The notes under the pieces are model-generated. The model was not told the origin of the DNA, did no database searches, and was given only the letters and a program-made list of their open reading frames with translations. DNA of 63,863 bases, the filler included, from Reclinomonas americana ATCC 50394 (Eukaryota), in the NCBI GenBank assembly GCA_048213135.1. It is 17 parts of 17 records of this genome, joined end to end, with 100 filler letters (N's around TTAATTAATTAA, not from the genome) between each part and the next. Parts side by side here need not be neighbours in the genome. Positions count along the whole stretch, not along the records: positions 40,421 to 49,885 come from AFZH01021246.1; 16 more parts are not named here. The stretch is one strand, 5' to 3'. Shown piece after piece: positions 1,678 through 41,803 of the stretch. Made by a program: the position numbers and the translations under genes. Every line of letters starts with the position of its first letter. The first letter of the stretch is position 1.

Positions 1678-4600
1678 ATGGCCAGTGGCAGCAGTGCAGA
1701 CGATGTGATGGAGATTGATGGATCTTATGGAGGCATGCATAATCAAAAACTCACAGACACACACAATGAGAGAGAGAGAGAGAATGAGAGAGAGAGAGAG
1801 AGTGTACTTTTGTTGCTGCGTGAGTCTTTGAGAGAGAGAGAGAGTGGTAGGAAGGAAAAAGATGCGCANNNNNNNNNNNNNNNNNNNNNNNNNNNNNNNN
1901 NNNNNNNNNNNNTTAATTAATTAANNNNNNNNNNNNNNNNNNNNNNNNNNNNNNNNNNNNNNNNNNNNCCCTTCCCTTCTCCCGTCCCTTCCCTCCTCCC
2001 GTCCCTTCCCTCCTCCCGTCCCTTCCCTCCTCCCGTCCCTTCCCTCCTCCCGTCCCTTCCCTTCCCTCTCCTTTCCTTCTCCTCCCCTTCCCCTCCACTT
2101 CCCCTCTCCCTTCCCTTCCCCTTCTCCTCCCTTCCCCTTTTCCTTCCCCTTCTCATCCTCTCCCCCATCACAGCGCCTGCACTCTGCTCGCGCAAATCCT
2201 CCTCCCCGTGATGATGTTCGCCCCGGGACCCACCACCGCTCGGTTACTCGGCGGCACCAATGCCATCATGGCCCCGCCAGTGGACGAGTACATTGCGGTA
2301 CGTCATGTTCACCCGTTACTTCTGGAGTATACCACGTCTCTCATGTGCCCCGATCGCAGGTGTTTGGTCGCCACCTGCCGCCCTTTGGCATCGATGTGCA
2401 AATCAACTTGGTTCGCCGGTGCGTCTTTGAACCCACATGTCGCTTCTTCTTGTTCACTTCTCACATCTTGCCTGCCACAGTGGCTTCTTCCCGCGCGGTG
2501 GTGGCGAGATTCAGATCCTCGCCGTGCCCCCGTCGCTGCCACTGCACGCCATCAACCTCACCGAGTTTGGCGTCGTGAAGCGCGTGTGGGGTCACGCGTT
2601 TGTCGGCGGCAAGCTGCCGTCACACATTGCCGATCGCATGTCGAAGGAGGCGGAGAAGACCATTCGCCGGCGCATCAAGGGGGTAAGAAAAGGAGAAGAG
2701 AGAAGACAGAGAGAGAGAGAAGCGAAGAAAAGAGATCGGAGAGGGAGGAGAGAGAGAAGAAAAGGAGAATTGAAGCAATTGTAAGAGGCGGATGAAGGAG
2801 AGGGGAAAGAAAAAGAACGAGAGAACTTGAGCATACAAGAATGGGAAAGGCAGAAGCGAGAAGTCGAGCGAGAGAGAAAAAGAGAGAAAGCGAGAGAGTG
2901 GACTGAAAAAAGGAGTGCATGGAGGTAATGGGGAGATGACAGACAGACACCGACAGAATGTTGACGAGAATGGAAACCGAGAAAATAGTGTGCCCGTGAT
3001 TGAGAGAGGGGCGGAAATGGGAGGAAGCGAAAGAGTGAGGAGGAAAGACGGGAACAGAGAGAGAGAAAGAATGGAGGAAAATGGAAGGCGAGAAATCGAG
3101 AATATCGATGGACAATGGGAACCGAGAAATAAGTGTACTCGGGAGGAAGCGATAGAATGAGGAGGAAAGACGGACACCGAGGAAGATTGAGAGGGGCGAG
3201 AGAAATCAGAGAAACCGATAGGAGAAGTGCGCGCGTGCAAGTGGCAGAGCTATAGTGAGAGGATGCGAAACAGAATGGAGGAAAGACGAATGTGAGAGTG
3301 ATTGGGAGTGTGAGCGGGATTGGCAAAGACAGAGAGAATCGGGAGGCGAGAAGGAGAAAGAGACAGCGAGAATGGGAGGAAGAGAGTGAAGCGGTGACTT
3401 AATTGTCTCTGTTACTGTTCGCCTCACTTTAGTGTGCAGGTGGAGGTCGACGTTGTGACGGACCACGACCCGAACACGGATAGCCCTGGAGCTGGCATCA
3501 GGTGCGAAGCAACCTTTTTCAAGAATGGGCTATCAATGTTGTCTCTCCCACTCATTCTTTGCTCGTGTTGCCCTCCTGCACATAAGCAGATATAGTTAGA
3601 GAGGCGAGAGGACGCACTTTGCTTTTGGTTTTCTTGTTGACCCGTTCTCGTTCCTCTTGCCCTCCTCACTCGCTTGTTCTCTCTTTTCCTCCACCCTCAC
3701 TTCTTGTATCCCGCACCCCGAAAGGCCTTCTACCTTTTCGCCTGACCCTTTCCACCAGTTCTGACCTCATCCTCTCTTTTCCTGCTCCTTGCCATCCTCA
3801 CACTTCTTCCCTCTCCTCCTGGGGTCATTTTCACTCCTTTTCCTCTTCCCTTCCTCCATGTCTTCTCACCTCGAGTCATGCCTCTTTTCTCCCTTTCCTT
3901 CCCTTCTATCCCTCCCTCCTTCCCCGTCTCTTCTTTATTCTCCTTCTTTTGTCCTTCTCTTCAGCGTTTCCATCCTCTCCTGTTTCGCCCTGTTTCTTCC
4001 CTTTTCCTCTCCGATTCCCATTTCCCCTTTCCCCTTACCTCCCTTCCCTTCTCTTCTCTCCCTCCCTCCTTCCCCGTCTCTTCTTTATTCTCCTTCTTTT
4101 GTCCTTCTCTTCACCGTTTCCATCCTCTCCTGTTTCTTTCCTCTTCTCTTTTCCTCTCCCCTTCCCCTTTCCCTTTCTCCTTCTCCCTCACTCTCCCCCC
4201 TTCTCCCTCCGCGCAGCCTCTACTGCGAAACCTCCACCGGCTGCATGCTCGGCGCCAACGTCATTGGCGAGCGCGGCGTCTCCTCCGAGGACGTGGCCTC
4301 GAACTGCGTCGACAAGCTGGTGACGCAGATTCTCTCCGGCGGTTGCGTCGACGAGCACGTGCAGGACCAGCTCATCATTTTCATGGCGCTGGCCGAGGGT
4401 TTGTTCTCTCCTTATCCTCCCTCCCACAGAGAAGCACCCTTTTCTCACATCTCTGCAGGCACTTCGCGTCTGCGCACGGGTCCTCTGACGGAGCACACTC
4501 GCACCGCCATTCACTTTTGCGAGATGATGACTGGAGTTGCGTGCTTCCCTGGAAGTGCAGCGCGCAGTGCAGTTGATGCTAACCACGCGATGGGCAGGCT

Positions 4601-4681
4601 CGCTTCACGGTCACTCCCGACGCCGAGACGTTTATCATTGAGGCCGAGGGCATTGCGTACCGCGGTCGACCGGCAGAGTAA
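1678..4681 (+). CDS. RTCA: RNA 3'-terminal phosphate cyclase (multi-exon, spans a gap)
   Basis: Exons encode MEIDGSYG, LLGGTNAIMAPPVD, GFFPRGGGEI, GGCVDEHVQDQLIIFMALAEG, TGPLTEHTRTAI and IIEAEGIAY. Introns are GT-AG; stop TAA at 4679-4681. Confidence 0.9.
1869..1967. other. Artificial scaffold spacer N..TTAATTAATTAA..N (one of many)
   Basis: An identical spacer with stops in all frames recurs at every gap. Genes (RTCA, MPP10) continue collinearly across it. Confidence 0.95.
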
Positions 4682-4822
4682 GGCTGCGCAGGGGAAGCGT
4701 GATAGATCTGGGGTTTGCGAATGAAGTTTGTGTTCCGTCGTGGACTCAACTGCGCCTCTCTTCCCTGCATCCGATGTCGATGGTAGTTGTGATTCGCCGC
4801 TTCCTGCTGCTGACGCTGATAT

Positions 4823-7028: not shown

Positions 7029-9650
7029 CGGCGCCGAGGCGATCGTGCGCTTCCTGGCCACTGAGTACTACGATCTGATTGGTATGGTCAATGCCGAGGG
7101 AAAGACGGCGGCGCACATGGCGCGTGATTGCTCTGCGGTGCAGGTGGCCGAGCTGCTGGAGCGGCTTGCCGCGCAGCCGCCGCCACCACGACGACGGCGA
7201 CAGGGTGCGTGCGCCTTTTGTCTCTTTTTGTGAGAAAACCCACTGTGTCGCTGACTGCCGGTACAGCTGCACCGGTATATGAGGACCTCGATCTTTTGTC
7301 TCGTTGATGCACTCACCAGCGTTTCCATGTGCATAGGTGGTCGACGAGGCGGCAGTGGCACGACAGCTCGCCGACAAGGACACGCTCATTGCCCAGCTTC
7401 AGCACGATGTCGCCGCCGCGCAGCAGGAGCGCGCACAGCAGCAGCGTGTGTTGGAGCGACGAGTCGAGCAGCAGCGGCAGGAGCACGAGGACATTGTGGC
7501 GCAGCTGCAGCGTGCAGTCAACGATCTGCAGCGTGCCGTCGCCGAGGGCCAGCAGAGGAATGGCGAGCTGCAGCGAACCAACACGGAATGGCAACGAGCG
7601 CACGCTGCAGTGGAGCAGCGCAGTGTTCAGCTGCAGCGTGATATGGAGCAGTTGACGAGGACAGTGGAGCAGCATGCAGCCGCGCGAGAGGCACTCGAGC
7701 AGGCCCTCGGAGCGGAACAGCAGCGAACTGCCGATCTCACCAGCGAACTGACCTCCCTCCGTGGTGAGATCGTCGTCCACCACTTTCTCTCCTCACGCGA
7801 AAGAATAGCTCACTTTCCAATTCTTTCAATGCAGCCTCAAAACTCTCTCGTCTGCGTGAGTACGCGTGGGAGGACGTGGTGATGGCCACCGAGTCATTTT
7901 GTGCTCGGTTGAAGGCCGGAGGGGGCGGTCAGGGTGAGGTGTACCTGTGCGTTCTCATCGACGAAGATGTGGCCATCAAGCGACTGGATAGCACCGCACC
8001 TTGGGTGGACAAGTCGTACAATGCGGAGGTGCGCGGGTGGGAAAAGTAGCATGGAGGAAAGAGACTCACTCTTTGATTTCTGTCAGTTGAACACCATCGG
8101 ACAACTGCGTCACCGTCGGCTTGTTCCGTTGCTCGGGTACTCTTTGCAAGCGGACGGCGATGCTGTGAGAGAGCGATGTTTGGTGTATCGAGCCATGCGG
8201 TTCGTGGATCGGGTGTGATGAGCGCGACATCTCCATGCTGACTGCGTTTCACAGTGGCCAGGATCTGGAAGTGCGTCTGCTGCAGCGCAAACCGGGTATG
8301 CTGCCGCTGACGATGGTGGAGCGTGTGCACATTGGTCTCGGTATCGCCGAGGGAGTGTGCTTCTTGCATCAGGTGCGTGGGTGATAGAGGCTGTGTGCAG
8401 AGGAGAGGGTGTTCTCGTTTCAGTCATGTTGTGTGATCCTCTCGTCGTGATCTTTTGGCTCCACTGCGTCAGGCAGATACTGAGTCGAAAGGGCGCGGCC
8501 TTGCTTCTCTCTCTGTTTCTCTCTCTCTCTCTCTCTCCTTTCCTTGTTTCTCGCACCCTTTGTGTATACAGGTCATCTTCCTGTCCTCTTCATGTCCCTT
8601 CATCCAACACTCTCTCAGTCTCTATCTATCTCGCTCTCCTGCATTTTGTCTTTCTCCCTCTTGCTCTCTTCTCTTTATCTCAATCTTTGTGTTACTTTTT
8701 GTGCATCCAATCTGCTTCCCTCTCACTTCGAGCTCCTTCTCTTTCTCTCTTTCTCTGCGTCATAACTTATTTCATTCTCAATGTCTCCCTGCACTCTCCA
8801 TCTCACATCAGTCCTCTATGTTTCTCTGTTTCTCTGTCTCTCTCACGCACTCACACTCGCTCCTCGTTGTCTTGCTTTCATTTTCTGTCCCTGTTATCTC
8901 TCTCCTCTTGCAGTGTCTCGCTGCCTTTTCTCTTCTCCTCTCTCATTATTCATTCTGCTGACCATCTCCATCCCTCTTCTTTTCTCCAACTTCCTCTCCC
9001 GCAGAACGGCGTGATCCACCGCGACCTCAAGCCACCCAACATTCTCCTCGACAACCACTGTGAGCCGCGACTCGGCGACTTTGGCATTGCGCGCATTTTC
9101 CATCCCGACGAGGTGACCCTTGACCGCTCGGCTTTTTGCACTCTTTTTGCCTCTCACCCCTTGTCCCTCTTCAGACACATCGCCGCACCGTCAACCAAGA
9201 AGGCACGCCATTCTACACCGACCCTCTTTTTGTGCAAACATGCGAGATCCGCCCGGCCATGGACATGTACGCGTTCGGCGTGATTCTCTTGCAGCTGTTG
9301 ACAGGCCGCGATGCGCGCACCGTGATTGCGCAGGCGAGGGAGTGGGAGCGCTCGATCGCCACGGTCGACGCGGTGGCGCAGGCCGACCGAGACGCGGGCG
9401 AGTGGCCGGTGAGGGTGGCGCGTGGCTTGTTGCGACTCGGAGTGCAGTTGCGTGGGGTGGGGAAGGGAGAGATGACAGAGGGATGTGGAGCTTTGGACAT
9501 TGTGCTTGTTCTGCGGAGACAGCTCACTTTATGTGTGCGCCCAGGTGCATGTCATTGTCTGCGGAGAGGCCGTCGTCAGAGGATGCCATGATGGTGATGC
9601 AGGAATTGCGGGAGGGCTTGGGCGGCTTGCGTCGTGGTGGTGAGAGATGA
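7029..9650 (+). CDS. Ankyrin + coiled-coil + IRAK/RLK-Pelle-like protein kinase (multi-exon)
   Basis: Ankyrin IVRFLA..NAEGKTAAHMA, then a long coiled coil. Kinase motifs: REYAWEDVVMATESF, GGGGQGEVY, VAIKRL, LRHRRLVPLLGY, IHRDLKPPNILLD, LGDFGIAR, GTPFYTDP, DMYAFGVILLQLLTG, AGEWP, ERPS. Stop TGA at 9648-9650. Confidence 0.85.
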
Positions 9651-15858: not shown

Positions 15859-18800
15859 AACTTGTTCCACGTCTCGTCTCCCCTCAGTGCCTGCTGGCAA
15901 CCGACCACCCACACGCAGAGTCGCGCACGAGTGAGCATCACATTCAGTCGCCGGTGATCGCGGAGGAAGTCCATGGTGCCTGCGTTGAGGCCAGTGTGAG
16001 AAAGGGGAAGCGATTACTTCAGCTCAATTTCGACGCACCTCCCGTGCGCACACACGAGACGATAATGATGTCCTTTTCACGACCTTGAAATCCATCCTGT
16101 GTGGTGTACAATGAGTAATCGAGTGACAACTGAACGCGCTTTCTTGTTACTGCACACGCAACAACAGTGTTGATATCCAGATCGCTTCGGCGCTGCGAGT
16201 TGCGGCGCAGACGATCACGCAATGCGCCGACTTGTGCACGGTACGGAGTGATGACGCCAACTGACACGTTGGCAAGATTGGGGTCCACGTCCCGGAGATT
16301 CTCCAGCAGCCTCACCAGCTGATCCACGAAATCGACTTCTCGGTCATTGCGCAGAGAATGCAGATCTGGAGAGGGATTTGTGAGGAGCAGAACAACAGGA
16401 TAGAAAATGAATACAGAGGCGACAATCACCAGATCCGGCACGCCCGTATTCGTGCCTCGTGCCCGCGAGGTCGTAAAACACCACTGGACCACAGTACCGC
16501 GACTCGTACAACGAACTGCAGGTGACGGTGAGTGAGCTCTTCTTGCGCAACAAACCAGCACACAAACACACGAGCGTGCAAACCATCGAAGGTTCTGCGC
16601 CTCGATGCTGTCCTCCAACAGATGATCGTATGTCAACTCGTTGGCCAGCGCACAAATGGTGGGATGCATGCGGTATTGAGTGCGAAGCATGCTCCGTGTC
16701 ACGGCTACACGACGAAGATTGCAGCGCGTGAGACGGGATCGCAGAGAGAGAGAAGATTGATGAGAGGAGACGCAACTATTGGACGGCGTGCGACACCTCA
16801 GCAATCGCTCCATCAACGAGCGAGCATACGGAATCTCTTCGCCGCTGTACTGAGCGAGAATGGTGGCCGGCAACTGCTTCGGATCACCGACCTGTAGAGA
16901 CACCAAGTCAGCAAACTGCACTCACAGCTGCGCACGACAGTTGGAAAACAGGACGCACCAGAATGCACTTGGAGCACCCGTAGCGGAGCGGGATGAGTGC
17001 AGAAGGCTCCACGCATTGCGCGGCCTCATCGATAACCACAGTCGGGAAGCGCTGCGCATCACCACACCTGCACACACACATTGTCAACGATTAAAGCGGG
17101 CATCTCCGTCGAAACCGTGTCTCTCATGCGACGCAACATGTTGCGCAGCATGGCACTGGCGCTGAGTGTGCACACCACAATGTCGGCTCGCGCAACAATC
17201 CTCTGTCGAAGGTGCTCCCGCTCGGCCATTGGACGCATCGCCTTGGACTGTTACGCGAGTGAGGGGAGTGATGAATGGAAACTTAGTCAGCAGAGGAACG
17301 CACATCCTTGGAGCCATTTTGCAACTCTGCAACAATGACACCGTAAACACGCTGGTAAATGATCGAGAAAGAGGGGCACGGAACAACAAACCCAGTTCGA
17401 CTTTCTTGTCAATGTGACAACTCTGAACAATTTCCTCTTCTTCGGCGCTCCGAGTGCCCGTCCGTCGTCCACCGCTTCCCACGCGGACCATGCTGCGATG
17501 ATGCACAATATGGTCAGCGACCACTCGTGTTCCTCATTCTTCTTCTCTCACGAACCTGAAGTTGCCCGGCAACTGTGGAGTCGGCCGTGCAGCAATGTCG
17601 ACAAACAGGCGGTGCATGCGAATAAGCAACTCCTCTGCCGCCACATTGGAGGGCGCACACAGCAGGATTGGCGGGTGCTGGCGATCACGCTGCTCCATTC
17701 TTGCCAATGCTGCGAAAGGAGGAGAAGAGACACGGAGAGCGGAAAGAGAGGGGAAAGAGAGGGGAGGAGAGGGAAAGAGAGGGAAAGAGGGGAAAGAGGG
17801 GGTGTGTGAGCATCGAGCTTGCAAACACGGTGCTTTAGGGGTCTCACCTCGCTCCGACAACAACGCCTCCATGATACCAATCACAGTGCGCGTCTTGCCG
17901 GTTCCCGGTGGGCCTTCCACCAACACGATTCTGCACGGCGAGGGACGGTTACGAAGGCAAGGCATATGTGGAAGAACCAACTTCAGGGTGGTACGCACCC
18001 ACGTCGGCAAGCCACGACCTCCGAAATCGCTTGCAGCTGATACTTGTTCAAGTCGTTCTTCAGCGGCCGCCACTTGCTCGCCGCTCGATAGGAGGGCAGT
18101 GTCGACGTTCCGTCCGACGATACGGCCGGATTGAGAATGCTCTTGAACACCTTGCACTCCAGCATGTGCTCTCTCAGCAGCAGGACGCTCTCGTACTCGC
18201 GGCGCACTGATGTGAGACTGCAGAGTCGTTGGACACTGCAAGGTGGGGGGAAAAGGTAAGAGGGGGGAGAGAGGGGAAAGAGGGGGAAAGAGGGGAAAAG
18301 AGGGGGAAAGAGGGGAAAGAGGGGAAAGAGGGGAAAGAGGGGAAAGAGGNNNNNNNNNNNNNNNNNNNNNNNNNNNNNNNNNNNNNNNNNNNNTTAATTA
18401 ATTAANNNNNNNNNNNNNNNNNNNNNNNNNNNNNNNNNNNNNNNNNNNNGGAAGGAGGGGGAAGGAGGGGGAAGGAGGGGGAAGGAGGGGGAAGGAGGGG
18501 GAAGGAGGGGGAAGGAGGGGGAAGGAGGGGGAAGGAGGGGGAAGGAGGGGGAAGGAGGGGGAGGGAGGACACCTTATCTGCACATGTCTCTCTTTCTTTC
18601 AAGATTCGCGAAGTTGTTGTTTTTGACCTCTTGAAAGCGCAGAGTGAGAAAAAGAGAAGGAAAGAGAGAGAAGGATGAAGGGAATGAGACGTAAGAATGG
18701 ATGCAAGTAAAAAGAGAGATCGAGCAGTCAACTGCCGATCGCTTCTCAACGCACCCCATCTTGCAAAGCATGCGAATTTGCGACTGAGCATCACGATTCC

Positions 18801-30528: not shown

Positions 30529-31672
30529 ATGATTTCGAGAGTGAGTACCGCTGACTTCTGCTCTTCTCATCCTTGCACCCGCCTCACTCACTCACTCACT
30601 CACTCTGCGAGGGCGCCAGGTCATCCGCGGGCACAGTGAATTTCTCACGTGTGTCACCGTCACTCCCGATGGTCTCCACATTGTGAGCGGGAGTGCCGAC
30701 AGCACCATGCGAGTGTGGTCGCTGGCGAGTGGCGAGGAGGTGCGGCGAATCGATGGCGGCGGCGACGTCGTGCACCGTTGGATCATGTCGATCACTGTCA
30801 CTCCCGACGGACAGCACGTTGTGTGCGGGACGGGCGACAACACGGTGTGCATGTGGTCTCTGGCCAGTGGGCAAGAGGTGCGACGCTTTAGAGGGCACGC
30901 CAAAGTTGTGCACTCGGCTGTCGTCACCGCCGATGGTGCGCACATTGTCAGTGGAGGCGAAGACAACGCAGTGAGGGTGTGGTCGCTGGCGAGTGGCAAG
31001 GAAGTGCGACGGATTCGAGGGCACACCGATGTTGTGTATTCGGTCGTCGTCGCTCCCGACTGTCAGCGCATTGTGAGTGGCAGCGCGGACAGAACTGTGC
31101 GAGTGTGGTCGCTGGCGAGTGGCCAGGAGGTACGACGATTGGTGGGACACAGTCGTGCGGTGCGGTCTGTTGTTGTCACCGCCGACGGTCAGCACATTGT
31201 CAGTGGAGGCGAAGACGACACGCTGCGCCTGTGGTCCGCGGTGAGTGGGGAGGAAGTGCGCCAATTTGTGGGGCACACGGGTGTGGTGCGGTCCGTCGCT
31301 GTCACTCCCGATGGTCGCTTCCTCGTCAGTGTCGGTGGCGTGGGAGACAAGACTGTGCGAGTATGGTCACTGGCTGATGGAGAAGAGGTGCATCGCTTGA
31401 TGGGGCACACCGATGCGGTTTGGTCTGTGGCTCTCGCCCCCGATGGCCAGCACATTGTGAGTGGCAGTCGGGATAAAACGATACGAGTGTGGTCCACGCC
31501 GCGCGGACTGGCCGGGCAGGAGGTCGCTGCCGCGCGATCGGCGGTGCAGGCTGTCAACGAGCTGATGGACGGGGACGGTGATGGGCGGGACTGGATTCTT
31601 GTCGATGTCGTGCTGCGATGTTTTGTGCTGGAGGATGTAGAGGTGATTCAGCGCAATGCGAAAGGGTGGTGA
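30529..31672 (+). CDS. WD40 array gene 1 (7 WD40 + conserved C-terminal tail), intact
   Basis: Exon 1 MISR (30529-30540), intron to 30619, then VIRGHSEF... Seven repeats and the tail ...DWILVDVVLRCFVLEDVEVIQRNAKGW*. Confidence 0.9.
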
Positions 31673-32051: not shown

Positions 32052-33162
32052 ATGACGACCAAGGTCAACGCACCTCTCCTAGGCCTGCAGTTGTCGTTTG
32101 TACGCTCACTACGATCACCGCGCAGGTCTTGAGTGGACAGCGGATTCCGTGCTGTGTGCCACCGTCACACCCGACGGACAACACGTGGTGAGTGGGAGTG
32201 CCGACAACACGGTGCGAGTGTGGTCACTGGCGAGTCGCAAGGAGGTGAGGCAGTGGAAGGGACACGCCTCGGCGGTGTTTTCTGTCGCCGTGACTCCCGA
32301 CGGTCAGTACATTGTCAGTGGCAGTGATGACAGCGTTGTGTGCGTGCGGTCGTTGTTGGAACCGGGAAATTATGCGCGACAGTTGAGAGGTCACACCGGG
32401 TGGATCATGTCTGTCGCTATTACTCGCGATGGGCGGCGCATCGTCAGCGGCGGCGATGACACAGTTCGAGTGTGGTTACTGCCGAGCGGGAATGCATATC
32501 AGCTTTGCAGGAGGAGCATGTGGGGTGTGTTGTGTGTCGCCGTTTCTCCCAGTGGTCAGCACATTGTGAGTGGGGGCAATGACGGAACTGCGCGAATGTG
32601 GTCCGTGGCGACGAGAGAAGTAGTGCGCCAGTTCGACGGGTACACCAGCCCGATGCTGTCTGCCGCCGTCGCTCCCGATGGCCAGCACATGGCGACTGGG
32701 AGTGACGACAGGATAGTGAGAGTGTGGTCCCTTGTGAGTGGGGAGGAAGTACGACGACTCATCGGACACACTGACTTGGTGAACTCTGTGGCGTTCACTC
32801 CCGACGGGCTGCACGTGGTGAGCGCGAGCAACGACAACACGGTGCGTGTGTGGTCCATGGCTGACGGCGAAGAGGTGCGACGACTGGAGGGTAACACGAA
32901 CTGGGTGAACTCTGTCGCTGTGACTCCCGATGGCCAGCACATTGTCAGCAGCGGCGTCGACTGCACTGTCCGAGTGTGGTCCACGTCGCGAGGTCTGGCC
33001 CGGCAGGAGGTCACTGACGCACGACTGGCCGTGCTCGCCGTCGACGAGCTGCTTGCCGAGGATGGTGATGATGAGCACGACTGGGTTCTGGTCGATGTGG
33101 TGCTGCGGTGCTTCGTGCTCGAGGATGCGGAGGTGATTGAACGACGTGCGGAAGGGTGGTGA
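32052..33162 (+). pseudogene. WD40 array gene 2, 1-nt deletion at the start of exon 2 (pseudogene or sequencing error)
   Basis: Exon 1 MTTK. Exon 2 from 32126 reads gga ca gcg gat (expected gga cac gcg), out of frame with the 7-repeat ORF ending 33162. Confidence 0.75.
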
Positions 33163-33497: not shown

Positions 33498-34605
33498 ATG
33501 GCAACGAAAGTACGCACTCCTCGCCTGATGTTGACAGTTGTTTCGCGTGCTCACAATTACCAACGCACAGGTCTTGCTGGGCCACGATCTCCAAGTGCTG
33601 AGTGTCGCTGTCACCCCCAATGGCCAGCTCATAGTGAGTGGAAGCGCCGATGCGACACTGCGTGTGTGGTCACTGGCGAGTGGAGAGGAGGTGCGGCGGT
33701 TGAAGGGACACATAGGCGCAGTGATGTCTGTCGCCGTGACTGCCGACGGCACGCGCATTGTCAGCGGTGGAGATGACACGACAGTGCGTGTGTGGTTACT
33801 GGAGAGTGGAGAGGAGGTGCGTCGGCTGCAGGGGCACACTGCTCCGGTACCGTCTGTCGCCATCTCCCCCGACGGCGCGCACATTGTCAGTGGAAGTGTG
33901 GATTTCACTATGCGCGTGTGGTCCACGGCGAGTGGAGAGACGGTGAAGCAACTGAAGGGACACACTCACGTGGTGCAGAGCGTCGCCGTTACTCCCGATG
34001 GGCAGCGCATTGTCAGCGGCAGTTCGGATGGCACAGTCCGAGTGTGGTCTCTGGCAAGTGGAGCTGCAGAGCGACGGCTGGACGGACCCAGGTGGGGAGT
34101 GTTTTCCGTTGCCGTCACTCCCGATGGTCAGCACGTTGTCAGCGGGAGCCAAGATAAAACTGTGCGCATGTGGTCGATGGAGAGTGGCGAGGAGGTGCGC
34201 CGGTTTGAGGGACACACTGATTGGGTGAACTCTGTGACGGTCACTCCCGACGGGCGGCATGTGGTGAGTGGCAGTTGGGACAAGACGGTGCGTGTGTGGT
34301 TGTTGGCGAGTGGCACAGAGGTGCGACGGTTGGAGGGACACTCGGGAACCGCGCGGTCTGTCACCCACACCCTCGATGGCCATCACATTGTGAGTGGCGG
34401 CTGGGACAAGACGATCCGAGTGTGGTCCTCGCCGCGCGGGTTGGCCGGGCAGGAGGTCGCAGCCGCAAGAGTGGCCGTGCTGGTCGTCAACGAGCTGCTT
34501 GCGGAGGATGGTGACGAGCGCGACTGGTTCCTGGTCGATGTCGTGTTGCGGTGTTTTGTGCTGGAGGATGCGGAGGTGATTGAGCAGCGTGCAGAAGGGT
34601 GGTGA
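33498..34605 (+). CDS. WD40 array gene 3, intact
   Basis: Exon 1 MATK (33498-33509), exon 2 from 33571 in frame. Seven repeats and the tail ending EQRAEGW*. Confidence 0.92.
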
Positions 34606-35003: not shown

Positions 35004-36126
35004 ATGGCGGACAAGGAGGTTTCGTGTGCGCGTACAAGCACGTTAGTTGCCACCCTCCTTGCAGCCTGTGAGTCTCACTTGTGCACACAGATTCTGAATG
35101 GCCACACCGACCACGTCTTGTGTGTCGCACTCACTCCCGACGGTCACCATGTCGTGAGTGGGAGCAAGGACAACACCATGCGAGTGTGGTCACTGGCGAG
35201 TGGCGAGGAGGTGCGACGCTTGCAGGGGCACACCTCGCAAGTGTTTTCTGTTGCCGTCACTCCCGATGGCCAGCACGTGGCCAGCGGGAGCTGGGACAAC
35301 ACAGTTCGCGTATGGTCACTGGCCAGTGGCGAGGAGGTGCGACGACTGGCGAGGCACTTCATGGGCGTGCTGTGTGTCGCCGTCACCCCAGATGGCGAGC
35401 ACGTTGTCAGCGGCGGCAACGACTGGGCCTTCCGAGTGTGGTCACTGGCGAGCGGTAGCGAAGTGCGACTGTTGAAAGGACACAACGGACCGGTGATGTC
35501 TGCGGTTGTCACCTCCGATGGTCAGCATGCTGTGAGTGGCTGCATGGACACGGCCGTGCGAGTGTGGTCACTGGCGAGCGGTGAGGAGGTGCGACGACTG
35601 GAGGGGGCACACTGGCGCGGTGCACTCTGTCGCCGTCACCCCCGATAGCCAGTTCATCGTGAGCGGGAGTCGCGACGCCACCGTGCGCGTGTGGTCGCTG
35701 GCGAGTGGCGAGGAGGTGCGGCGAATGGACGGGCACACTGAGAGCGTGCAGTCTGTCGCCATCACTCCCGATGGCCAACACGTTGTCAGTGGGAGTGGCG
35801 ACCAAACTGTGCGTGTGTGGTCTCTGGCTGACGGGAAAGAGCTGCGACGGCTGGAGGGACACACCGATTGGGTGACCGCTGTTGTCGTGACTCTCGGCGG
35901 CCGACGCATTGTGAGCGGCAGCAGGGACGGCACGGTGCGCATGTGGCCCTCGCCTCGCGTGCTTGCCGGGTATGAGCTGGCGGCCGCCCGATCGGCCGTG
36001 CGCGCCGTCAACGAGCTGCTGCCCGTGGACGGCGACGATCGCAACTGGGTGCTGGTCGATGTCGCGCTGCGGTGTTCCGTGCAGGAGGATGCAGAGGTGA
36101 TTGAGCGCAGGGCGGAAGGGTGGTGA
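35004..36126 (+). pseudogene. WD40 array gene 4, +1 frameshift in a G5 run
   Basis: Exon 1 MADKE, exon 2 from 35091. gagggggcac at 35601-35610 shifts the frame between repeats 4 and 5; the gene is otherwise intact. Confidence 0.75.
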
Positions 36127-36543: not shown

Positions 36544-36764
36544 GCATTGTGAGCGGCAGCAGGGACGGCACGGTGCGCATGTGGCCCTCGCCTCGCGGGC
36601 TGGCCGGGCAAGAGCTCGCCGCCGCTCGATCAGCCGTGCAGGCCATCAATGAATTGTTGGCTGAGGATGATGACGAGCGCGACTGGATCCTTGTCGATGT
36701 GGTGATGCGATGTTTTGTGCTTGAGGATGCGGGGGTGATTGAGCGGCGTGCAGAAGGGTGGTGA
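36544..36764 (+). CDS. WD40 array gene 5 (3' end only; remainder in the gap)
   Basis: IVSGSRDGTVRMWPSPRGLAGQELAAARSAV...DWILVDVVMRCFVLEDAGVIERRAEGW*. Confidence 0.8.
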
Positions 36765-37112: not shown

Positions 37113-38220
37113 ATGGCAACGAAAGTACGCACTCCTCGCCTGATGTTGACAGTTGTTTCGCGTGCTCACAATTACCAACGCACAGGTCTTGCTGGGCCAC
37201 GATCTCCAAGTGCTGAGTGTCGCTGTCACCCCCAATGGCCAGCTCATAGTGAGTGGAAGCGCCGATGCGACACTGCGTGTGTGGTCACTTGCGAGTGGAG
37301 AGGAGGTGCGGCGGTTGAAGGGACACATAGGAGCAGTGATGTCTGTCGCCGTGACTCCAGACGGCACGCGCATTGTCAGCGGTGGAGATGACACGACAGT
37401 GCGTGTGTGGTTACTGGAGAGTGGAGAGGAGGTGCGTCGGCTGCAGGGGCACACTGCGCCGGTGCCATCTGTCGCCATCTCCCCCGACGGCGCGCACATT
37501 GTCAGTGGAAGTGTGGATTTCACTATGCACGTGTGGTCCACGGCGAGTGGAGAGACGGTGAAGCAACTGAAGGGACACACTCACGTGGTGCAGAGCGTCG
37601 CCGTTACTCCTGATGGACAGCGCATTGTCAGCGGCAGTTCGGATGGCACAGTCCGAGTGTGGTCTCTGGCAAGTGGAGCTGCAGAGCGACGGCTGGACGG
37701 ACCCAGGTGGGGAGTGTTTTCCGTTGCCGTCACTCCGGATGGTCTTCACGTCGTGAGCGGGAGCCAAGATAAAACTGTGCGCATGTGGTCGATGGAGAGT
37801 GGCGAGGAGGTGCGCCGGTTTGAGGGACACACTGATTGGGTGAACTCTGTGACGGTCACTCCCGACGGGCGGCATGTGGTGAGTGGCAGTTGGGACAAGA
37901 CGGTGCGTGTGTGGTTGTTGGCGAGTGGCACAGAGGTGCGACGGTTGGAGGGACACTCGGGAACCGCGCGGTCTGTCACCCACACCCTCGATGGCCATCA
38001 CATTGTGAGCAGCGGCTGGGACAAGACGATCCGGGTGTGGTCCTCGCCTCGCGGGCTGGCCGGGCAGGAGGTCGCAGCCGCAAGAGTGGCCGTGCTGGTC
38101 GTCAACGAGCTGCTTGCGGAGGATGGTGACGAGCGCGACTGGATCCTGGTCGATGTCGTGTTGCGGTGTTTTGTGCTGGAGGATGCGGAGGTGATTGAGC
38201 AGCGTGCAGAAGGGTGGTGA
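37113..38220 (+). CDS. WD40 array gene 6, intact; near-identical duplicate of gene 3
   Basis: Offset 3615 nt from gene 3. Only a few amino-acid differences (A/P, R/H, Q/L, G/S, F/I). Confidence 0.92.
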
Positions 38221-38513: not shown

Positions 38514-38686
38514 TGTGCTTGCCGGGTATGAGCTGGCGGCCGCCCGATCGGCCGTACTCGCCGTCAACGAGCTGCTTGCCGCGGATGGCGACGATTGCAA
38601 CTGGGTGCTGGTCGATGTCGCGCTGCGGTGTTCCGTGCAGGAGGATGCACAGGTGATTGAGCGCAGCGCAGAGCGGAAGGGTGGTA
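38514..38686 (+). pseudogene. WD40 array remnant 7: C-terminal tail only (gene-4-like copy with the propeller deleted)
   Basis: VLAGYELAAARSAVLAVNELL...NWVLVDVALRCSVQEDA matches the gene 4 tail. The flanks match the gene 4 upstream and downstream spacers. Confidence 0.8.
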
Positions 38687-39373: not shown

Positions 39374-40320
39374 ATGGCAGCGAAGGTACGTGCGTGTGTG
39401 TGCAGTTACCGCGCGCTCTTCACAGCCTCATGCGTCTCTTCTCAGGTCTTGCGCGGTCACGCCGGCGAGGTAATGTCGGTCGCTGTCACTCCCGACGGCC
39501 AACACATTGTGAGTGGTGGTGTCGACAACACGTTGCGAGTGTGGTCACTGGCGAGTGGAGAGGAGGTGCGACGCATTGAGAGCCACAAGTCAATGAGGAG
39601 AGTTGCCGTGACTCCCGACGGTCAGCACGTGGTCAGCCTCGGTTATGACACGCTGAGCCTATGGTCACTGGCCAGTGGGGAGGAGGTGTGGCGAATGGTG
39701 GGGCACGTCAGGACTGTATTCTGTGCCGCCGTCACTCCCGATGGCGAGCACGCTGTCAGCGGCGGTTTCGACATGACAGTGCGCGTGTGGTCACTGGCGA
39801 GCGGTAAACACTGGAGTTGTCATGTCAATGGCCGTCGCTCTCGATGGTCAGTACGCTGTCGCTGGAGGCGCGGGTGTAACCGTGTGGTCACTGGCTAGCG
39901 GTGCACTGGTGCGACAGTCCCGATGGCCAGTTCATAGTGAGCGGGAGTCGCGACGCCACCGTGCGCGTGTGGTCCATGGCGAGTGGCGAGGAGGTGCGGC
40001 GAATGGACGGGCACACTGAGAGCGTGCAGTCTGTCGCCATCACTCCCGATGGCCAGCACATAATGAGTGGTAGCAGAGACCAAACTGTGCGTGTGTGGTC
40101 TCTGGCTGACGGAAAAGAGGTGCGACGGCTTGTGGGGCACCTTGGCGAGGTGACCTCTGTCGTCGTCACTCCCGATGGCCGACACATTGTGAGTGGCAGC
40201 GACCACGACGACTGCACGATTCGAGTGTGGTCCTCGCCTCGCGGACTGGTCGGACACGAGGTCGCAGCCGCAAGAGTGGCCGTGCTGGCTGTCAACGAGC
40301 TGCTCGCCGAGGATGATGAT
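39374..40320 (+). pseudogene. WD40 array gene 8, two internal frameshifting deletions; 3' end in the gap
   Basis: Exon 1 MAAK, exon 2 from 39446. Deletions near 39805 and 39917 remove EEVRRLEG / GH..V segments. Confidence 0.75.
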
Positions 40321-40432
40321 NNNNNNNNNNNNNNNNNNNNNNNNNNNNNNNNNNNNNNNNNNNNTTAATTAATTAANNNNNNNNNNNNNNNNNNNNNNNN
40401 NNNNNNNNNNNNNNNNNNNNCGTACGTACGTC

Positions 40433-40691: not shown

Positions 40692-41803
40692 ATGGCAGCG
40701 AAGGTACGTGCATGAGTGTGCAGTTGCCGCGCGCTTTTCACAGCCTCATGCGTCTCTCTCAGGTTTTACTTGGTCACACCGACGACGTAATGTCGGTCGC
40801 TGTCACTCCCGACGGAACTCACATTGTGAGTGGCAGCAAGGACACCACCGTGCGAGTGTGGTCACTGGCGAGTGGGAAGGAGGTGCGACGAATGGAGGGA
40901 CACACTGACATGGTGTGGTCCGTTGCTGTCACTCCCGATGGTCGGTGCGCTGTGAGTGGAAGTGCCGACATGACTGTGCGAGTGTGGTCCTTGGCGAGTG
41001 CGAGGCAGGTGCGACTGCTGGAGGGACACCATGGCCATGTGTGGAGTGTCGTCGTGCCTCGTGGCGGGCAGCACGTTGTGAGTGGAGGCCGAGACAGGGT
41101 TGTGCAAGTGTGGTCACTGGCGAATGAGAAGCGAGTTCTCTGGTTGGAGGGACACCGTGACGATGTTCACTGCGTTGCCATCACTGCCGACGGTAAGCGC
41201 ATTCTGAGCGGGAGTGAAGACAAGACAGTACGAGAGTGGTCGCCGGCGAGTGGGAAGGAAGTGCGGCTGCCGCTGCGACACTACGGTGCAGTGCGCTGCA
41301 TTGCTGTCACTCCCGATGGCGAGCACATTGTGAGCGGGTGTAAGGGGGATCCAGTTCGCGTGTGGTCGCTGGTGACTGGGGAAGAGGTGCGACGGTTGGA
41401 TGAACACTCTATTGGTGTGTTGTCTGTCGCCGTCACTCACAACGGTGAGCATATTGTGGGCGCGGTCTGTGACAGCAGCTGGTCAATACGAGTGTGGTCA
41501 CTGACGAGTGGAGAGGAAGTGCGACGGCTGGAGGGACACACCTACGTCGTGTGGTCTGTCGCCGTCACTCTCGATGGCCAACACATTGTGAGTGGCAGCG
41601 GAGATAAAACGATCCGTGTGTGGTCCTCGCCGCGGGGGTTGGCATGGCGAGAGTTTAGGGCTGCGCGATTGGCCGTGCTTGCCGTCAACAAGCTGCTGGC
41701 CGAGGATGATGATGAGCGCGACTGGATCCTGGTCGACGTAGTGCTGCGGTGCTTCGTGCTCGAGGATGCAGAGGTGATTGAGCGGCGGGCGGAAGGGTGG
41801 TGA
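40692..41803 (+). CDS. WD40 array gene 9, intact
   Basis: Exon 1 MAAK (40692-40703), exon 2 from 40763. Seven repeats and the tail ...ERRAEGW*. Confidence 0.92.

Follow-up and report, generated by a model that had tools for sequence, protein, structure and literature searches.

The known substrate receptors of cullin ligases carry one of a small set of handles, namely the F-box, the BC/SOCS/VHL box, BTB or DCAF. In the fungal HNWD NLRs (HET-E/D/R) the WD40 sensors consist of highly similar blades which vary at the top face and exist as mosaic copies. WSB1 and WSB2, in which a C-terminal SOCS box follows WD40 repeats, and the VHL-box receptors belong to Elongin BC-cullin ligases (passages of PMC3355856 and PMC5855688). 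The C-terminal F-boxes of poxviruses are truncated and yet bind Skp1, one of them with the first helix only (sections of PMC4353913). In trypanosomes, novel paralogues of Skp1 were recovered in pull-downs of the lineage-specific cullins Cul-E, Cul-F and Cul-G, and those of Cul-E and Cul-G also contained kelch or LRR proteins without an F-box (parts of PMC12816148). For the expanded adaptor families of nematodes foreign proteins were proposed as targets (excerpts of PMC4063957).

Here we describe a gene of Reclinomonas americana ATCC 50394 in which a conserved tail directly follows, on the 3' side, a seven-blade WD40 propeller. The gene lies in the window, by which we mean the whole stretch of 63,863 nucleotides that was analysed, made of 17 joined parts of the assembly GCA_048213135.1; its 16 joints (e.g. 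40321-40420) consist of 44 N, a 12-base linker with stops in all frames and again 44 N, and are padding, not biology. The tail spans 41624-41800 on the plus strand and comprises 59 amino acids ending in GW, with the TGA stop at 41801-41803 (Table 1). A sequence-only reading of this DNA had placed a module of about 58 residues at 41623..41803; the module is present, but its frame starts one base later, at 41624, and holds 59 residues. The tail string given in that reading is the consensus of the copies, from which the copy at 41624-41803 departs within helix 1, where WREFR replaces GQEVA and K replaces E. Nine tail copies were found in the window by tblastn, and they form a head-to-tail array on the plus strand between 31493 and 41800. 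The GW-stop ending, which had been taken as conserved, is reached in seven of the nine, but it is typical of subfamily A only; the tail at 38518 is truncated and lacks a propeller, and the one at 40231 is cut by an assembly gap. The window also contains exons of an RNA 3'-terminal phosphate cyclase-like gene (1971-4721, +), a protein kinase exon (8222-9280, +) and an exon of an AAA_12 (UPF1-like helicase) gene (16022-16921, -).

Table 1. Coordinates of the tail-bearing gene, its parts and its paralogues in the window
Feature	Position	Strand	Basis
Conserved 59-aa C-terminal tail and stop	41624..41803	+	translation, tblastn, alignment, dN/dS
Helix 1, predicted (residues 3-26); L6, E10, A14 invariant	41630..41701	+	AlphaFold2, 50-row alignment
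Acidic loop, length variable (A14 to L36 19-31 residues, 99 tails)	41702..41725	+	alignment
Helix 2, predicted (residues 35-56); L36, R42, C43, E47 invariant	41726..41791	+	AlphaFold2, alignment
Seven-blade WD40 propeller, four variable top-face positions per blade	40763..41623	+	Pfam, AlphaFold2
Predicted 12-nt first exon (ATG and three more residues)	40692..40703	+	sequence prediction
Predicted 59-nt GT..CAG intron	40704..40762	+	sequence prediction
Paralogue, tandem, WD40 and tail (tail 31493-31669)	30593..31672	+	tblastn, Pfam
Paralogue, tandem, WD40 and tail (tail 32980-33159)	32137..33162	+	tblastn, Pfam
Paralogue, tandem, predicted micro-exon (tail 34426-34602)	33498..34605	+	sequence prediction
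Paralogue, frame change near 35600 (tail 35947-36123)	35085..36126	+	tblastn
Paralogue 3' end, after assembly gap (tail 36585-36761)	36546..36764	+	tblastn
Paralogue, tandem, predicted micro-exon (tail 38041-38217)	37113..38220	+	sequence prediction
Tail fragment, no propeller upstream, probably decayed copy	38518..38673	+	tblastn
Paralogue with frame changes; assembly gap cuts tail	39374..40320	+	tblastn

The window gene gives seven WD40 stretches (PF00400, E 3e-60). Upstream DNA could be read for 29 full-length copies; a CAG stands just before the first blade in 25 of them, and in 19 of the 29 an ATG, nine bases and a GT are found upstream as well; thus the genes are probably not intronless. 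The predicted intron lengths fall in all three phases, and a 12-nt exon with a GT..CAG intron of 58-90 nt is also predicted at 33498, 37113, 39374 and many other loci. The window gene is a mosaic, with 93-100% DNA identity to one paralogue (L008) over residues 1-280 and 95-100% to another (L002) from residue 281, and its downstream flank is shared with the latter. Such a mosaic could come from unequal crossover, gene conversion or an assembly chimera. The mosaic parents of 40763-41803 are paralogues on the contigs C6630-C6632, which look like the other haplotype of the array.

The family extends far beyond the window. When the window tail was used as the query, 151 matches were obtained in the 108-Mb genome from the best 150 of 1422 candidates, and a divergent subfamily-B tail gave 150 matches from the best 150 of 1567 candidates. 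The two lists, compared by eye, have no position in common, therefore the genome holds at least 300 tail places, a count which alleles may inflate up to about twofold, since many of the genes are present twice, in almost the same form, on separate contigs. Loci were fetched for 148 distinct tails, and in 140 of the 144 with upstream sequence the end of a WD40 blade directly precedes the tail; the remaining four are decayed or rearranged copies from the same family. The sequence-only reading had proposed a search for the tail fused to other repeat types, and among these 148 tails, whose loci were the best-scoring picks, none was seen; the long open frames considered as candidate fusions were runs of N in those examined. 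One tail (L069:504-722, -) has the start of helix 2 duplicated internally.

Outside the genome, a subfamily-A profile run against 1.84 billion representatives found two relatives, P0002 and P0003, and a word-based homologue search found one protein. P0002 is a divergent WD40 protein bearing the tail, and P0003 is, by its name, an R. americana EST, which is 88% identical to a subfamily-B tail and clusters with subfamily B in the tail tree. Neither the 12 candidates in viral contigs nor the 74 in genome contigs contained a relative of the tail, and the single metagenome contig among 88 candidates proved to be a chance match in bacterial DNA. Three further loci (L153, L154, L135) and P0002 encode divergent WD40 proteins with the tail, not of the repetitive-blade type, and form deep branches in the tail tree. 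Among the papers listed by a literature search, none describes the tail or its WD40 family. The tail is a real, undescribed and lineage-restricted C-terminal module on a very large family of variable WD40 proteins.

The conservation of the tail was compared with that of the propeller in 20 subfamily-A and four subfamily-B genes by pooled pairwise Nei-Gojobori counts, uncorrected for phylogeny or recombination. Within subfamily A (n=20) the mean pairwise amino acid identity is 75% in the tail against 60% in the propeller, while pS is 0.47 and 0.54, respectively. The synonymous divergence of the two parts is thus similar, and the conservation of the tail acts on the protein. It is concentrated in residues 33-56, where identity reaches 88-91% and dN/dS 0.07-0.09 within each of the two subfamilies (91% and 0.07 in subfamily A), compared with 60-62% and 0.32-0.33 for the propeller; helix 2 is under strong purifying selection. 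Helix 1, with dN/dS of 0.32-0.34, is constrained no more than the propeller. The earlier statement that the tail is conserved while the blades diverge therefore holds within subfamily A but is reversed between subfamilies A and B, where the tail is 43% identical and the propeller 59%. Seven residues (L6, E10, A14, L36, R42, C43 and E47) are nevertheless invariant in a 50-row alignment which includes P0002 and P0003. At the four top-face positions of each blade (25, 23, 7 and 5 residues before the blade Trp) identity falls to 10-23% with a pooled dN/dS of 0.7-1.2, values that do not prove positive selection at these positions.

The AlphaFold2 model of the full-length protein shows a closed propeller with pLDDT of 79-99 over residues 1-290, and by Foldseek it matches 5yzv with a TM of 0.95 by target length, its matches being via the propeller only. 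The tail is predicted to fold as a two-helix hairpin: two AlphaFold2 models of modest confidence agree on one helix over residues 3-26 or so and another over about 35-56, the tail-alone model being a bare hairpin with pTM 0.44 and the pLDDT of the tail dropping from 74 to 41 in the full-length model. The position numbers of facing residues in a plausible antiparallel register would sum to about 65, pairing E10 with R55, A14 with V51, V21 with F44, E23 with R42 and L24 with L41. Across 108 tails, 12 positions of helix 2 are at least 95% hydrophobic and are spread all round the helical wheel. One partner helix is thus unlikely to cover them, and a hydrophobic, conserved side of helix 2 would stay open after packing on helix 1, to be taken by a partner or by another copy of the tail. 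In the VIA fold search the best match of the tail model was a transducer helix pair (Z 8.1, rmsd 1.7, 57 aligned residues), a generic hairpin, and F-box, SOCS and PRANC entries, which may be similar all the same, are absent from the generic-hairpin matches listed by the fold searches. Profile matches of helix 1 to light-harvesting proteins in the PDB (E about 0.7-2) were taken as chance.

Helix 2 contains the stretch which had been aligned to the F-box core, and it also holds a Cul2-box-like L36/V40/F44. Sequence tests with controls do not support the tail as an F-box or PRANC domain. A profile comparison of the kind proposed with that alignment, run with the Pfam F-box, PRANC and SOCS models, gave no match at E<=10 among 37 or 50 tail members, and the proposed Foldseek search of the tail model against the PDB and viral libraries returned nothing at E<=0.001. 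Compared by hhalign with the genome's own F-boxes, the tail reached a probability of 1%, the only aligned columns being D38-F44 on F-box helix 1. As a control, an eight-sequence profile of the genome's F-boxes picked out solved F-box proteins in the PDB at E values as low as 3e-7, and the tail profile retrieved no F-box from the same database. On the genome F-box profile none of 103 tails exceeded 1.0 bit; left-out real F-boxes scored 6.1-33.7 and shuffles up to 9.2. Genome scans with the PRANC (PF09372), SOCS_box and VHL_C models gave no matches, but no working positive control accompanied these scans, and the PRANC result is uninformative. Of the 40 genome matches to PF00646 five were opened, none of which is a tail copy. 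N-terminal ankyrin repeats as in PRANC proteins were not seen among the tails with upstream sequence, which follow WD40 blades as given above.

The hydrophobic and Asp spacing on which the F-box claim was built does exist, in its strict form in 52 of 103 tails, but 1.3% of shuffles of the window tail match it under strict residue sets, and 6.5% when the sets are loosened; it is a pattern of helix periodicity. In the register that had been proposed, the residues at F-box positions 1, 2 and 4 are D/R, D/S and I/C and never fit all together. A proline occupies position 6 in 32 of 103 tails, and the positions taken by the invariant R and C are unconstrained in the F-box. The LP reported as missing is indeed absent from the window copy, which has V for P, but subfamily B does have L-P-E in a different register: in 31 of 103 tails an L-P-E precedes two hydrophobic pairs, with one residue fewer than at the start of the F-box, and the full core, LPxE with two hydrophobic pairs and L13, occurs in none of the 103. 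In the tail tree, which was built from 110 rows and 62 columns with the trait column left in, was rooted at its midpoint and is weak at many forks, the proline lies inside lineages that carry V and turns back into A, V or S. Complex prediction for an LP-bearing subfamily-B tail with a Skp1 stand-in, run with alignments unused and no controls, gave scores of 0.06 and 0.02, where the mark is 0.34, and these count neither for nor against binding. The stand-in, P0009, is the closest full-length Skp1 found; it shares 45/72, 22/24 and 25/29 residues with the exons of Skp1 in the genome.

The SOCS/VHL box is a closer resemblance for the tail than the F-box or PRANC. The Cul2 box phi-P-x-x-phi-x-x-x-phi, in the wording of part of PMC3355856, is present in strict form in 32 of 103 tails, those of subfamily B, against 7% of shuffles; with V allowed for P, as the window copy has it, 89 of 103 tails fit against 17% of shuffles, and the three hydrophobic sites are 95-100% conserved. 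The same source, in the part that defines the boxes, places the Cul2 box 8-23 residues after the BC box. However, the BC box itself, (S/T/P)Lxxx(C/S/A)xxx-phi as defined there, is found in strict form in 1 of 103 tails, and the looser version taken from a section of PMC5855688 in 1 of 110 tails against 8% of shuffles. A14-R15-x-x-V/M18 fits positions 6, 7 and 10 of that version, but an invariant E sits on the key leucine of position 2. The Cul5 box LP-phi-P does not occur in the 103 tails either, since their fourth position holds V, M, I or L but never P. When the last blade and a subfamily-B tail were submitted to ESM Atlas, two WSB (WD40 and SOCS) clusters ranked third and fourth (0.91 and 0.90), with 141-142 shared features, below the 170 typical of one family, and the link may reflect the geometry of a blade plus a helical tail; the tail alone gave no usable match. 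Thus the suggestion of a WSB-like SOCS box draws on the Cul2-box pattern and the ESM Atlas neighbours, but the tail is not a SOCS/VHL box by the published definition, since the BC box is lacking, and it has no Pfam SOCS match.

What, then, could the tail be for? A constant tail on variable propellers likely plugs all family members into one shared partner. As the best, though tentative, reading we propose that the tail is a lineage-restricted two-helix docking module which couples the variable propellers to a non-canonical cullin-RING ligase, and not to canonical Skp1 via an F-box. Helix 1 would lie antiparallel on helix 2, whose remaining hydrophobic face would bind an adaptor common to the family. 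This could be the divergent paralogue of Skp1 or the Elongin-C-like protein, or the face could contact one of the additional cullins itself; the propeller would select the targets, with ubiquitination to follow. Of the sequence-only proposal, a reversed cullin-RING adaptor of variable specificity, the general part survives, as a constant tail on variable repeats fits the design of a substrate receptor, but the F-box/PRANC identity does not, and the specific F-box claim should be dropped.

The genome encodes a canonical Skp1 and another paralogue of it whose C-terminus has diverged. In this second paralogue (L033/L034; G000 C24, C712) the last helix is without the conserved N-x-W end. An Elongin-C-like gene (L035:1387-1869, +) has one predicted in-frame intron and the usual short C-terminal helix at its end. 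Among 15 cullin matches (L108-L122) there are at least seven distinct C-termini, and of the two that were typed one is Cul1-like. Four of the cullin C-termini (L111, L114, L115 and L116) are alike and possibly form a lineage-specific expansion, and two C-termini lie 8 kb apart on one contig. For the ligase reading, a precedent exists in the F-box-less kelch and LRR proteins pulled down with the trypanosome cullins, but these Skp1 paralogues and additional cullins amount to no more than an opportunity. Against it count the lacking BC box, a Cul2-box pattern which is weak alone and whose proline is nested and lost again in subfamily B, the low number of features behind the ESM Atlas link, the falling pLDDT of the tail in the full-length model, and the argument, made in part of PMC2785787, that the Cul2/Cul5-Elongin complexes of animals are animal-specific.

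Other readings of the tail have to be weighed against this one. One would argue that the tail is a self-association module, of which two or more hairpins bundle, so that the propellers are clustered as multivalent binders and a ubiquitin ligase plays no part. The hydrophobic residues on every side of helix 2, the small alanines A7, A14, A17 and A20 along one face of helix 1 and the bare hairpin of the monomer model would all suit such a bundle; however, L36, R42, C43 and E47 stay invariant though the subfamilies differ at 57% of the tail positions, which would fit a fixed outside partner at least equally, and we consider self-association rather unlikely. That outside partner may have nothing to do with ubiquitin: the tail could dock the propellers on an NLR-like NACHT receptor or another effector, the family being a library of detachable sensors. 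The variable top-face positions do resemble those of NACHT-WD40 sensors such as HET-E, but no tail-bearing NLR is found among the 148 tails, nor a NACHT match in 47 long ORFs elsewhere in the window, where an intron-rich gene could be missed, and this reading seems to us unlikely.

It is far less probable that the tail is a truncated PRANC-like F-box, acting in an SCF ligase through canonical Skp1. An extremely degenerate F-box is conceivable, given the poxviral boxes of PMC4353913, so far as the sections cited above describe them, and the one-residue-short L-P-E tails and the D38-F44 columns aligned by hhalign point the same way. Set against this are the Pfam, hhalign and PDB profile results, the scores on the genome's F-box profile, the absence of the full core, the nested and reverting proline, and the models, which at low confidence give one 22-residue helix where the F-box has short helices, two long helices in all in place of two or three short ones. 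The least credible, in our opinion, is helix 2 as a shallow membrane anchor holding the propellers at the membrane surface. Residues 34-46 are mostly hydrophobic, the invariant cysteine included, but the stretch is short and contains conserved D/E38 and R42, followed by E47 and D/E48, and what is kept are exact residues, beyond hydrophobicity.

If the cullin-ligase reading is taken to its full extent, the tail would represent a new ligase box, through which jakobids connect a library of WD40 receptors, hundreds in number, hypervariable and recombining, to a Skp1 paralogue or cullin of their own lineage against foreign proteins, independently of F-box, SOCS, BTB and DCAF. We regard this wider proposal as doubtful. 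If it is true, the new box would be part of an intracellular search-and-destroy repertoire against foreign proteins in a free-living protist. The extra cullins of discoban protists have receptors without known handles, and the tail offers one small, concrete candidate for docking. Should it turn out not to serve a ligase, the tail still points to the partner that a very large recognition repertoire has in common, in a free-living eukaryote which branches deeply.

Comparison with the described systems places the tail family beside several of them. Like the HNWD NLRs, it has similar blades varying at the top face and mosaic copies, but its genes are without a NACHT or effector domain and carry an extra C-terminal tail. 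As in WSB1 and WSB2, a short helical C-terminal module directly follows the WD40 repeats, with a Cul2-box-like L-x-x-x-V-x-x-x-F at a compatible distance after helix 1 and the WSB clusters among the ESM Atlas neighbours; the differences are the lack of a BC box (invariant E at the key L), of the LP-phi-P Cul5 box and of a Pfam SOCS/VHL match, and the hundreds of tandem copies with variable faces. The poxviral ANK-PRANC/F-box proteins (PF09372; sections of PMC4353913) likewise have repeats first, a short constant helical module last and many copies, but the repeats there are ankyrin and here WD40, there is no profile similarity, and LP is missing in about three quarters of the tails sampled. 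With the TbCul-E, F and G complexes (parts of PMC12816148) the family would share the discoban lineage, the extra cullins and Skp1 paralogues and F-box-less propeller or LRR receptors; the trypanosome receptors, however, are kelch or LRR proteins, few in number and shown by pull-down. Finally, the F-box and MATH-BTB families of nematodes and plants, as portrayed in excerpts of PMC4063957, also number hundreds of genes in which a conserved part is joined to a fast-changing binding part, with the difference that there the recognised F-box or BTB is N-terminal and here the candidate handle is C-terminal.
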